A DNA stretch of 64,000 bases from a virus. Taxonomy: Duplodnaviria; Caudoviricetes. The DNA lies in the IMG/VR virus record IMGVR_UViG_2974506496_000001, positions 128,001-192,000 of that record; one strand, given 5' to 3'. Positions 37,666 through 41,379 of the stretch are shown here, in pieces (the stretch's first letter is position 1; each line of letters starts with the position of its first letter). Below the pieces are notes generated by a model, which made no database searches, was not told the DNA's origin, and saw only the letters and a list, made by a program, of their open reading frames with translations. Both the position numbers and the translations under genes were made by a program.

Positions 37666-37741
37666 TGGTCTATAGTTCAGTCGGTAGAACAGCGGACTGT
37701 TAATCCGTAGGTCGCTGGTTCGAATCCAGCTAGACCAGCCA
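37666..37741 (+). tRNA. trnN: tRNA-Asn (GUU)
   Basis: Full cloverleaf: tggtcta/tagacca acceptor, gttc/gaac D arm, gcgga-ctGTTaa-tccgt, gctgg-ttcgaat-ccagc, encoded CCA. Confidence 0.97.
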
Positions 37742-39139: not shown

Positions 39140-39205
39140 TCTGTAGGTCGCAGGTTCGATTCCTGTCGGGGTGAAACCCGTAGCTCAGTCGGTTAGAGCA
39201 GCAGA
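39140..39205 (+). ncRNA. Circularly permuted tRNA-like domain (T arm, looped acceptor, D arm)
   Basis: tctgt-aggtc-gcagg ttcgatt cctgt-cggg gtgaaa cccg-ta-gctc agtcggtta gagc-a-gcaga. Confidence 0.85.
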
Positions 39206-39278: not shown

Positions 39279-39402
39279 TCTAAAGCTTAAAGCTATAACG
39301 TATAATGACTAAAGCTCTAAAGGTTTAAACTTATAACGTTAAAAAGATCTACACTCCCTGATGACTGTGTTCGTCGGGCTATAACGCTAAAACCTTTTAA
39401 AC
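39279..39402 (+). repeat. Degenerate 7-8-nt tandem repeat (YTAAAGC / TATAACG-like)
   Basis: tctaaagc ttaaagc tataacg tataatg actaaagc tctaaagg tttaaac ttataacg ttaaaaag, a hairpin, then ctataacg ctaaaacc ttttaaac. Confidence 0.7.
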
Positions 39403-39688: not shown

Positions 39689-40106
39689 GGAGATTCAATC
39701 GCGCAGGTTCTTAACCGACTAAAGCCAGGGTGACTTGTGTTATCTTGGTAACAGGTGAACGCGTCGTTACAGCGCATACGACTGAATGGGCCGATCCCCC
39801 CTTCGGAGTAATATTAGCCCAGATCCATTGCACACCAATAAGTCAATGGCTAGCCAGACACACAAAAAACTATTATGCTTCGACAGATGGTAGGTGCCTG
39901 ATTACTACAATTCGATTCGATACCTCAACTAAAAGGCGGACACAAGGGCCGTTATGAGTGAAGCACCAGGAAACTATACCTTGGTAAGGCCCCAGGCTTT
40001 TTATCCTTACCAAGGTTCTCTTTCTTTTACTACCTGATAATGGGTGGATGCCTTAGTCACCTTTCTTTCACAGAGGCAACAACCTAAGGCGTCTGCCCGC
40101 CCTATA

Positions 40107-40216
40107 ACCCGAGTCGTCTAGCGACAAGACACCGTCAGACCCATTTGGTAACAGCCTAACTTACCTGTTACCCAACCTATGACGGAAACAGGTGGTTCAA
40201 CTCCACCTCTTGGGTC
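40107..40216 (+). ncRNA. tRNA-like element with a 42-nt insert replacing the anticodon loop
   Basis: acccgag/cttgggt acceptor, gtct/agac D arm, ccgtca/tgacgg stem, aggtgg-ttcaact-ccacct T arm; no CCA. Confidence 0.65.
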
Positions 40217-40293
40217 TTAGGTATTGGCTTAGGCAAACTCCGTCGCGGCTTTACCCTCAATAGGCTGCGTTGCGTAAGTCAGTACCGTGCTGT

Positions 40294-40449
40294 GCGTCGT
40301 ACTCCCTGATGAGGCGCCCGACGTTAAAAGGCACGAAACGGGGACAGAGGATACTCCATCGGTGATTGCAATCAACCACGCTGGGGTTTATACAGGCACT
40401 TGAGAGACACGCTGGTTTCTCGTTGCCTGTCCCTTTGTCCCGTCGGAGT
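40294..40449 (+). ncRNA. Type I hammerhead ribozyme; predicted cleavage 3' of C40444
   Basis: Stem I actcc/ggagt, core CUGAUGA (40306-40312), stem II, GAAA (40335-40338), stem III acggggacagagg/cctttgtcccgt, GUC triplet; loop II cgacgt pairs with 5' gcgtcg. Confidence 0.85.
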
Positions 40450-40853
40450 CCCTTGCGTTCCTGGAGGGATGACACCGCGTTAAGACTGATCCCCTTAACG
40501 AAGTTGCAATAGCCGGGGGTGTTTCTTGCAAAGGTTACTCACAGCAGACTGCCTCCGCCAATTGCGGATGGCTTAGGCCCTCAGTCCGTCAGGAAGTTGT
40601 CGTTGAATAAATGACAGCTGGACTAGGGTTGCATTATAACCCGGCAAATGTGCAGCCTGTTTTTTCTTCATGTGTACCTGAACCGGTTCAGGAGCCTACA
40701 GATGAGGGAACGACGGGAAGCATATTGCTACCGATCATTTGCTGTGTGACCGGGCCAAGGATGGCATATACCGGAACCAGTAGTCGTATTCAGCGCAGGT
40801 GCGCTTTCTCTTCCTTATCTTGTGGTTAAACCGCGCCTGTCTGGATCATACGT

Positions 40854-40881
40854 GCCGGGGTCACACCTGGCGCTTATGCCG
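40854..40881 (+). terminator. Hairpin plus TTATGCCG closing the RNA island
   Basis: gccggg-gtcaca-cctggc then gcttatgccg. Confidence 0.55.
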
Positions 40882-40956
40882 TCTGAGTTGTATCCTTTTT
40901 TACTCCTACATTACGAAGCTGATATACCCATCAATTCAATTTAAAGGAGTTTAGTT

Positions 40957-41379
40957 ATGAAGAACGTTACTATTGCTATTGGTCGTAATCCGCTGTCCAA
41001 CCAGAAATGGATTCTGGATCAGATCGTGAGTCTGGTGAAGTCCGGCAAGTCCGACATCTTCATCGTCAATACTGACTCACGGGTTTCCACTGCGGTACTC
41101 AACGCCTTGAAAGAGTATACGAAGGATGATGCGGAATACACTCGCTTGGTTGCTGAGAACGGTGTCATGTTCCACACAACCGAGACCGAAGACCTGCAAA
41201 CGCTGGATGATGCTAAGATGAACAGCCGCTCGGCGATTCTGGCCAACATGCTGTTCAGCCTGCCATTGGTCAAACAGTGTCGTGATCTGGCGCGTCACCA
41301 CGTCCCGGTCTTTGTGAGTGCCACACCTGCCATGTCTGGTAAGGTGCCGGCTGCCGCCCATACCAAGTTCCTCGATTAA
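40957..41379 (+). CDS. Hypothetical protein
   Basis: AAGGAG RBS; TACATTAC promoter-like site at 40907-40914. Confidence 0.7.
   Translation: MKNVTIAIGRNPLSNQKWILDQIVSLVKSGKSDIFIVNTDSRVSTAVLNALKEYTKDDAEYTRLVAENGVMFHTTETEDLQTLDDAKMNSRSAILANMLFSLPLVKQCRDLARHHVPVFVSATPAMSGKVPAAAHTKFLD

Follow-up and report, generated by a model that had tools for sequence, protein, structure and literature searches.

A predicted type I hammerhead ribozyme with a branched stem III domain, located between a tRNA-like RNA and a structured non-coding RNA in Erwinia jumbo phages

The stretch of DNA analysed here, referred to as the window, comprises 64 kb (G000:C1:128001-192000) of a 271-kb Erwinia jumbo phage. The region described below is 99.3-99.7% identical to its counterparts in the Agricanvirus phages Rebecca, MadMel, Deimos-Minion and Desertfox, and ∼80-84% identical to that of Erwinia phage AH06. 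Positions 40100-40513 are without any change across the four cultured Agricanvirus phages. In GenBank, the hammerhead region is unannotated, and the equivalent in Rebecca is a 1.27 kb segment between gp205 and gp206 that carries no annotation. This 1.3-kb stretch, blank in the GenBank records, can now be marked as RNA-coding. Features of the locus and its surroundings are listed in Table 1.

Homologues of the hammerhead were found in AH06 (L001), in three uncultured contigs (L004, L005 and L006), in Salmonella phage SA002 (L041) and in Erwinia phage pEa_SNUABM_37 (L042, here pEa37). These six were reached via the neighbouring 140-aa protein or via DNA similarity, and were therefore not selected for the presence of a hammerhead motif. 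In SA002 and pEa37, the 140-aa protein is just ∼41-43% identical to that of the window. Pattern scans added five minimal members (L008, L013, L016, L017 and L018), in which stem III is short and all of which come from unrelated viral contigs. A corrected loose pattern scan yielded zero additional members, and a scan of 185,579 prokaryote genomes gave no instance of the motif. L008 and L013 have a CUGAGUGUGUGCUC box and a homologous ORF in common downstream of the ribozyme.

The only tRNA called in the island upstream of the hammerhead by ARAGORN and the Rfam tRNA model is a tRNA-Asn at 37666-37741. It is followed by a Y-RNA-like module that matches positions 23-87 only of the YrlA model (RF02553), with 44.5 bits against a gathering score of 69, and that falls short of membership of the family, which requires the gathering score with the Rsr-binding stem. 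The elements of this YrlA-like tRNA mimic are permuted, with the T arm first, then a short hairpin and then the D arm, and its central hairpin is compensated relative to AH06. Further downstream, an A+U-rich stretch at 39290-39400 (+) includes three CUAUAACG-type boxes, conserved in AH06. A perfect 12-bp hairpin followed by a U-rich tail, located at 39978-40016 (+) just upstream of the tRNA-like element, resembles a host-type intrinsic terminator; in AH06 and L004-6, an ORF of 172-188 aa that is absent in this phage is found in this region.

The initial annotation had placed a tRNA-like RNA upstream of the ribozyme, and a cloverleaf with covariation is indeed predicted there. Its acceptor-like stem spans 6 bp (CCCGAG with CUUGGG) and its D-like arm 4 bp, the long anticodon-like arm carries the invariant loop CCUAACUUA, and the T arm reads GGUGG UUCAACU CCACC; a CCA end is missing. 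Compensatory changes are seen in the acceptor stem, the long arm and the T arm when five homologues are folded together with RNAalifold. The element is called by neither ARAGORN nor the Rfam tRNA model, and it is tRNA-like in its modelled cloverleaf and T arm only. A hairpin lies between it and the ribozyme, and probably insulates ribozyme folding.

All core nucleotides of the complete hammerhead that had been claimed at this position can be read directly from the sequence, the third strand being the GUC at 40442-40444. The three helices form a junction of type I topology, in which stem I is open, with stems of 5, 4+1 and 11 bp, and the A15.1-U16.1 pair is present between GAAA and U40443. Both the 5-bp stem I and the imperfect stem II described earlier are found in the sequence, stem II being made up of the pairs G-C, G.A, G-C, C-G and C-G with a bulged C after the second. 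Loop II is CGACGUUAAAA, and the pairing proposed between this loop and the 5′ flank is real, with compensatory changes in relatives. The stem that encloses the insert, described earlier as 12 bp, is likewise present and has 11 pairs and one bulged G. The structured insert in stem III, initially put at ∼80 nt, is 81 nt long and branched. The two hairpins that had been named within it are present at 40392-40430, where ACAGGCA (40392-98) pairs with UGCCUGU (40424-30) and GAGAGAC (40402-08) with GUUUCUC (40415-21); a further hairpin is located at ∼40354-40386. The sequence features by which a hammerhead is recognised, namely the core strands, a non-G H17, compensated helices and a tertiary contact between stem I and stem II, are all found here.

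Table 1. Position of the RNA elements, flanking signals and related loci (window coordinates, or contig coordinates where a contig is named).
Feature	Position	Strand	Details
YrlA Y-RNA-like (RF02553) module	39142-39205	+	partial model match
tRNA-like cloverleaf	40108-40214	+	RNAalifold on 5 homologues
Hairpin between tRNA-like element and ribozyme	40224-40286	+	consensus fold; ends approximate
Hammerhead, whole	40294-40449	+	
Pseudoknot 5′ strand	40294-40299	+	GCGUCG; pairs with CGACGU of loop II (40319-40324), 6 bp; a single U separates it from stem I
Stem I 5′ strand	40301-40305	+	ACUCC; pairs with GGAGU 40445-40449
Core C3-A9	40306-40312	+	CUGAUGA; invariant in relatives except N7
Stem II and loop II	40313-40334	+	GGCGCC (40313-18) with GGCAC (40330-34); loop 40319-40329, its first six bases paired with the 5′ flank
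Core G12, A13, A14 and A15.1	40335-40338	+	GAAA; invariant in 12/12 sequences
Stem III	40339-40442	+	40339-50 with 40432-42; 11 pairs and a bulged G
Stem III insert	40351-40431	+	81 nt; two hairpin arms
U16.1 and C17	40443-40444	+	predicted scissile bond 40444/40445; UC, UU or UA in relatives, never UG
Stem I 3′ strand	40445-40449	+	GGAGU; predicted 5′-OH end of released RNA
Downstream structured ncRNA	40445-40881	+	∼437 nt; ends at hairpin 40852-40873 followed by UUAUGCCG (40874-40881)
Promoter-like motif	40906-40914	+	CUACAUUAC; ahead of 140-aa ORF 40957-41379
Hairpin and UUAUGCCG sites	11044, 15240(-), 40874, 43087(-), 45227, 52310(-), 61677		GCAUAA often before the hairpin
Full-length RtcB RNA ligase gene	G000:C1:44575-45723		420 bits; outside the window, ∼124 kb from the ribozyme
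Minimal hammerheads	L008:12439-12511(-), L013:781-850(-), L016:2716-2785, L017:43-117, L018:1901-1975		unrelated viral contigs

Downstream of the predicted cleavage site, where an RNA of ∼400 nt had been proposed, a conserved and covarying RNA of ∼437 nt was found. Of its 145 predicted pairs, 22 show double changes; many covarying helices alternate with long invariant single-stranded stretches, and it contains no conserved ORF. The RNA has no match in Rfam and was found in the Agricanvirus-like group only; a search with an 18-base stretch from it returned chance matches in coding DNA only. SA002 and pEa37 have a shorter downstream RNA of ∼215 nt, which shares only the terminal hairpin and UUAUGCCG.

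The window has 9 copies of the octamer UUAUGCCG, where 1.8 are expected. A G+C-rich hairpin immediately precedes seven of them, and at least two of these seven sites come straight after a stop codon. The combination of hairpin and octamer is probably a phage-specific terminator or processing signal. The motif CUACAUUAC begins 25 bases beyond the octamer, and at this position it is conserved in L004-6, SA002 and pEa37. The general form, CTAYATTAC, has 4 occurrences (11787, 33430, 40906 and 53618, all +; 0.67 expected), ahead of genes and in three cases preceded by an A-run ∼10 nt upstream, and resembles a promoter used by a phage RNA polymerase. For both motifs, it is recurrence and position that suggest these roles. 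Between 36900 and 40960 there is one terminator-type signal (40874) and one promoter-type signal (40906), with no others within one mismatch, which fits a single long precursor for the RNA island. Exposure of a sequestered ribosome-binding site through the freed 5′ GGAGU was considered and rejected, as a terminator-type and a promoter-type signal separate the RNA from the ORF.

To assess the motif statistically, a hammerhead descriptor was written that requires the core, stems of at least 4 bp and an H17 other than G, and that allows inserts up to 150 nt long. It has one match in the 64 kb, counting both strands. Dinucleotide shuffles gave 0.033 matches per window at the loosest setting, and an equally good match in 0 of 300. 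A covariance model (R1), built only from the minimal relatives L013 and L016 from unrelated viral contigs, matched the window at 40290-40354 with 36.1 bits (E 3.4e-7), and this was its only match in the whole 271-kb phage genome. R1 is unable to bridge the 81-nt insert, so that the score derives from the motif's 5′ two thirds (the pseudoknot strand, the 5′ strand of stem I, core, stem II and GAAA), and its 3′ alignment is spurious for members carrying the insert.

The initial annotation had also proposed a check against hammerhead models, and here the curated Rfam models gave no match. RF00163 (Hammerhead_1), RF02275 (HH9) and the rest of the clan did not match at gathering score or at E≤10 when 3.8 kb and 191 bases of the locus were searched, and neither did any other ribozyme family. 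The core register is nevertheless alike. Among the minimal relatives, L013 reaches just 10 bits on HH9 against a cut-off of 52, with the register right, and this weak alignment puts CUGAUGAG, CGAAAC and GUA correctly. The curated models thus miss a whole subfamily of phage hammerheads, including the form with the branched stem III. The silence of Rfam is the one point in favour of a chance match to the hammerhead motif. That explanation is rejected by the shuffles and by the covariation described below, the R1 match also speaks against it, and it is regarded as exceedingly improbable.

Every core base is kept in AH06, L004, L005, L006, SA002 and pEa37, the only variable positions being N7, a U that is replaced by A in L004 and by C in pEa37, and H17, which is C, U or A. 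These are the two positions of the hammerhead core long known to be free. The three-helix type I layout is kept in 12/12 sequences. For the five sequences found by pattern, the search itself dictated the core and stem II, which hence are not independent evidence; for these members such evidence consists of stems I and III, the pseudoknot and the cleavage site. When the five are aligned by the model, pairing holds in 94% of cells and 10 pairs show double changes; 0 of 500 shuffles reach any of these measures, and slid controls are 27-40% paired.

In 10 sequences, the four core-proximal pairs of stem I are never broken and each occurs as 2-4 pair types, and stem III differs in sequence from lineage to lineage with its pairing retained in all. 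In each of the 10 sequences other than SA002 and pEa37, exactly one downstream site closes stem III, pairs with the stem I strand and provides U16.1 along with an H17 other than G. Stem II of most relatives consists of G-C, U-A, a bulge, G-C, C-G and C-G; in SA002 and pEa37 it is GUCGC paired with GCGAC, which amounts to two double changes and lacks the bulge. The pseudoknot has double changes at three positions, including G-C replaced by U-A in AH06 and by C-G in L008, L017 and L018, and its centre pairs are changed in L016, L017 and SA002.

In the first arm of the insert, one stretch is nearly invariant within the Agricanvirus-like group. The insert of SA002 and pEa37 is also branched and of similar size, but has a completely different sequence. 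As predicted from these sequences, the branched stem III thus exists in two versions, unrelated in sequence, in distant jumbo phages. Immediately upstream of the ribozyme, minimal relatives also carry a tRNA or a stable hairpin. In L008 this is a true tRNA-Arg, the CCA end of which abuts the pseudoknot strand; of the other minimal members, one ribozyme comes directly after the stop codon of an ORF and two directly after a strong hairpin. In SA002 and pEa37, tRNA-like 3′ ends precede the ribozyme.

Thousands of bacterial and phage hammerheads are known, and their cellular roles are largely unproven (PMC3088659). The pseudoknot-stabilised hammerheads that Perreault et al. 2011 (PMC3088659) described from bacteria, prophages and phages have the core, the three-helix junction and a stem I-stem II pseudoknot of 5-6 bp in common with the present element. 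An intergenic position in phages is also common to both, and processing of long transcripts was proposed for them in that study. In contrast to those hammerheads, the element described here is of type I and forms its pseudoknot via the open 5′ tail beyond stem I, it has an 81-nt branched domain in stem III, and it is flanked by a tRNA-like RNA and a terminator-bounded ncRNA rather than by protein genes. In the discontinuous hammerhead of mammalian Clec2 3′ UTRs (Martick et al. 2008), as outlined in PMC3088659, the halves are likewise split by a long insert, which according to that outline measures hundreds of bases, is carried in a different loop and belongs to a eukaryotic mRNA. The insert here is instead a compact and conserved two-hairpin domain in stem III.

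GOLLD and ROOL are large phage-borne ncRNAs found next to tRNA genes. They resemble the present locus, in a comparison made via Rfam only, in that a large ornate phage RNA lies beside tRNA or tRNA-like elements. They differ in that Rfam gives no match to either family here and in that the 5′ end would be made by a ribozyme, not by a tRNA-processing enzyme. A literature search found no paper connecting hammerheads with jumbo phages or Agricanvirus, and none of the papers searched describes the present element. The class of ribozyme is well known, and it is the branched, tRNA-linked form that is not catalogued. What is notable about the predicted element is its conserved branched stem III and its constant location, with a tRNA-like RNA on one side and a terminator-bounded ncRNA on the other.

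The arrangement is best read as an active hammerhead of type I, predicted to cleave and belonging to the pseudoknot-stabilised phage subfamily, and a probability of about 0.8 is assigned to this reading. The long precursor that we infer would be transcribed from the + strand and cover the RNA island, with the tRNA-Asn, the Y-RNA-like module and the tRNA-like element among its parts. First to fold would be stem II and the pseudoknot between the 5′ flank and loop II, and the three-way junction would close once transcription of the 81-nt domain in stem III and of the stem I 3′ strand was complete. The 2′-OH of C40444 would then attack its own 3′ phosphate. A 2′,3′-cyclic phosphate would terminate the 5′ product, in which the complete ribozyme follows the tRNA-like RNA and the hairpin, and the 3′ product would be the ∼437-nt folded ncRNA, predicted to start with 5′-OH-GGAGU and to end with the hairpin and UUAUGCCG. 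With a stem I of 5 bp, the products should separate quickly. Most likely, then, the ribozyme would cut a folded RNA of ∼440 bases free from a tRNA-shaped RNA. The predicted substrate is clear, being a precursor that the ribozyme would split into two conserved folded RNAs. Tractable cultured carriers are Erwinia phages Deimos-Minion, Rebecca, MadMel, Desertfox, AH06 and pEa_SNUABM_37 and Salmonella phage SA002, and because the ribozyme is found in cultured phages its role is testable by phage genetics and RNA end mapping.

Among natural hammerheads, ∼40% are known to depend on a stem I-stem II pseudoknot in order to cleave fast (PMC3088659). Some details of the helices would suit an RNA that retains a hammerhead-like shape for a structural or protein-binding purpose after cleavage was lost, or a decaying relic. 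In this phage, the pair next to the bulge in stem II is a G.A mismatch where relatives have U-A, and stem I is short, with 4-5 bp, or 3-4 bp in SA002 and pEa37; the lack of an Rfam match points the same way. However, loss of activity is very unlikely given that all catalytic bases are kept across lineages in which the flanking protein is ∼41% identical and that variation in the core is confined to N7 and H17. Folding predictions also bear on a conditional form of cleavage, in which either the stem III domain or a helix between 40286-91 and 40330-35 (CGUGC with GCACG) would be a switch and the ribozyme would fire only if a protein, RNA or ligand stabilised the active fold. ViennaRNA predicts that the nested alternative fold containing this helix (-68.2 kcal/mol) is more stable than the active one (-54.1 kcal/mol for the enforced nested hammerhead and ∼-7.3 for the pseudoknot). 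The insert has a conserved hairpin, and a role in control has been proposed for the large loops of natural hammerheads (PMC3088659). The competing helix is, however, broken by an uncompensated change in L004-6, and so is read as lineage-specific and possibly modulatory rather than as conserved structure. A switch is judged to be quite unlikely, considering also that the insert sequence of SA002 and pEa37 is entirely different, that no aptamer family was matched and that the minimal relatives use the same core with the insert absent.

A type I hammerhead remains on the 5′ fragment, so that the tRNA-like RNA and the attached ribozyme would gain a 2′,3′-cyclic-phosphate end. It is possible, if rather unlikely, that the ribozyme chiefly serves this upstream product, the end of which could give protection from 3′ exonucleases or be a substrate or signal for RtcB-type repair; release of the downstream RNA is compatible with this. 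The nearly invariant hairpin of the insert suggests a function beyond catalysis, a tRNA or tRNA-like element is found upstream in the window, L008, SA002 and pEa37, and the phage encodes both RtcB and a YrlA-like module. In addition, 5′ tRNA halves with a cyclic phosphate have been proposed as RtcR ligands in Salmonella (PMC10159003). Yet RtcB is missing from SA002, which has the hammerhead locus, and from the complete 54.6-kb L008 phage, no TROVE/Rsr (Ro) gene was found in the phage described here, the L013, L016 and L017/18 hammerheads have no tRNA upstream, and the downstream RNA is conserved at least as well as the upstream one. A broader proposal is that the hammerhead is the processing core of a conserved jumbo-phage RNA cassette, made up of the tRNA-like RNA, the hairpin, the pseudoknotted hammerhead with its branched stem III and the terminator-bounded ncRNA, in which the stem III domain is not passive. 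Either a factor of phage or host origin would then be required for cleavage, or the 5′ product would be a deliberate signal or substrate for RtcB/RtcR-type repair. Such a cassette combined with an active stem III domain is considered unlikely, and the preferred reading remains an active hammerhead that would release the downstream RNA.

The initial annotation had suggested looking for rtcB elsewhere in the genome, and this phage does encode RtcB, as do AH06, the L006 genome and pEa37. The ends left by the predicted cleavage chemically suit RtcB. A tie between the ligase and the ribozyme was considered and is not supported by the distribution, as the SA002 and L008 phages have the ribozyme and not RtcB. 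Circularisation of the released RNA, which had also been suggested, is not supported either, since no second self-cleaving element was found in the Rfam searches.

A second copy of ACUCCCUGAUGA, the same as the stem I and core strand of the ribozyme, is located at 39353-39364 (+). It is not conserved in AH06, and neither GAAA nor the closing strands accompany it. The copy is followed by CGUCGGGC, which is complementary to 40316-23, and it may be a partial duplication.
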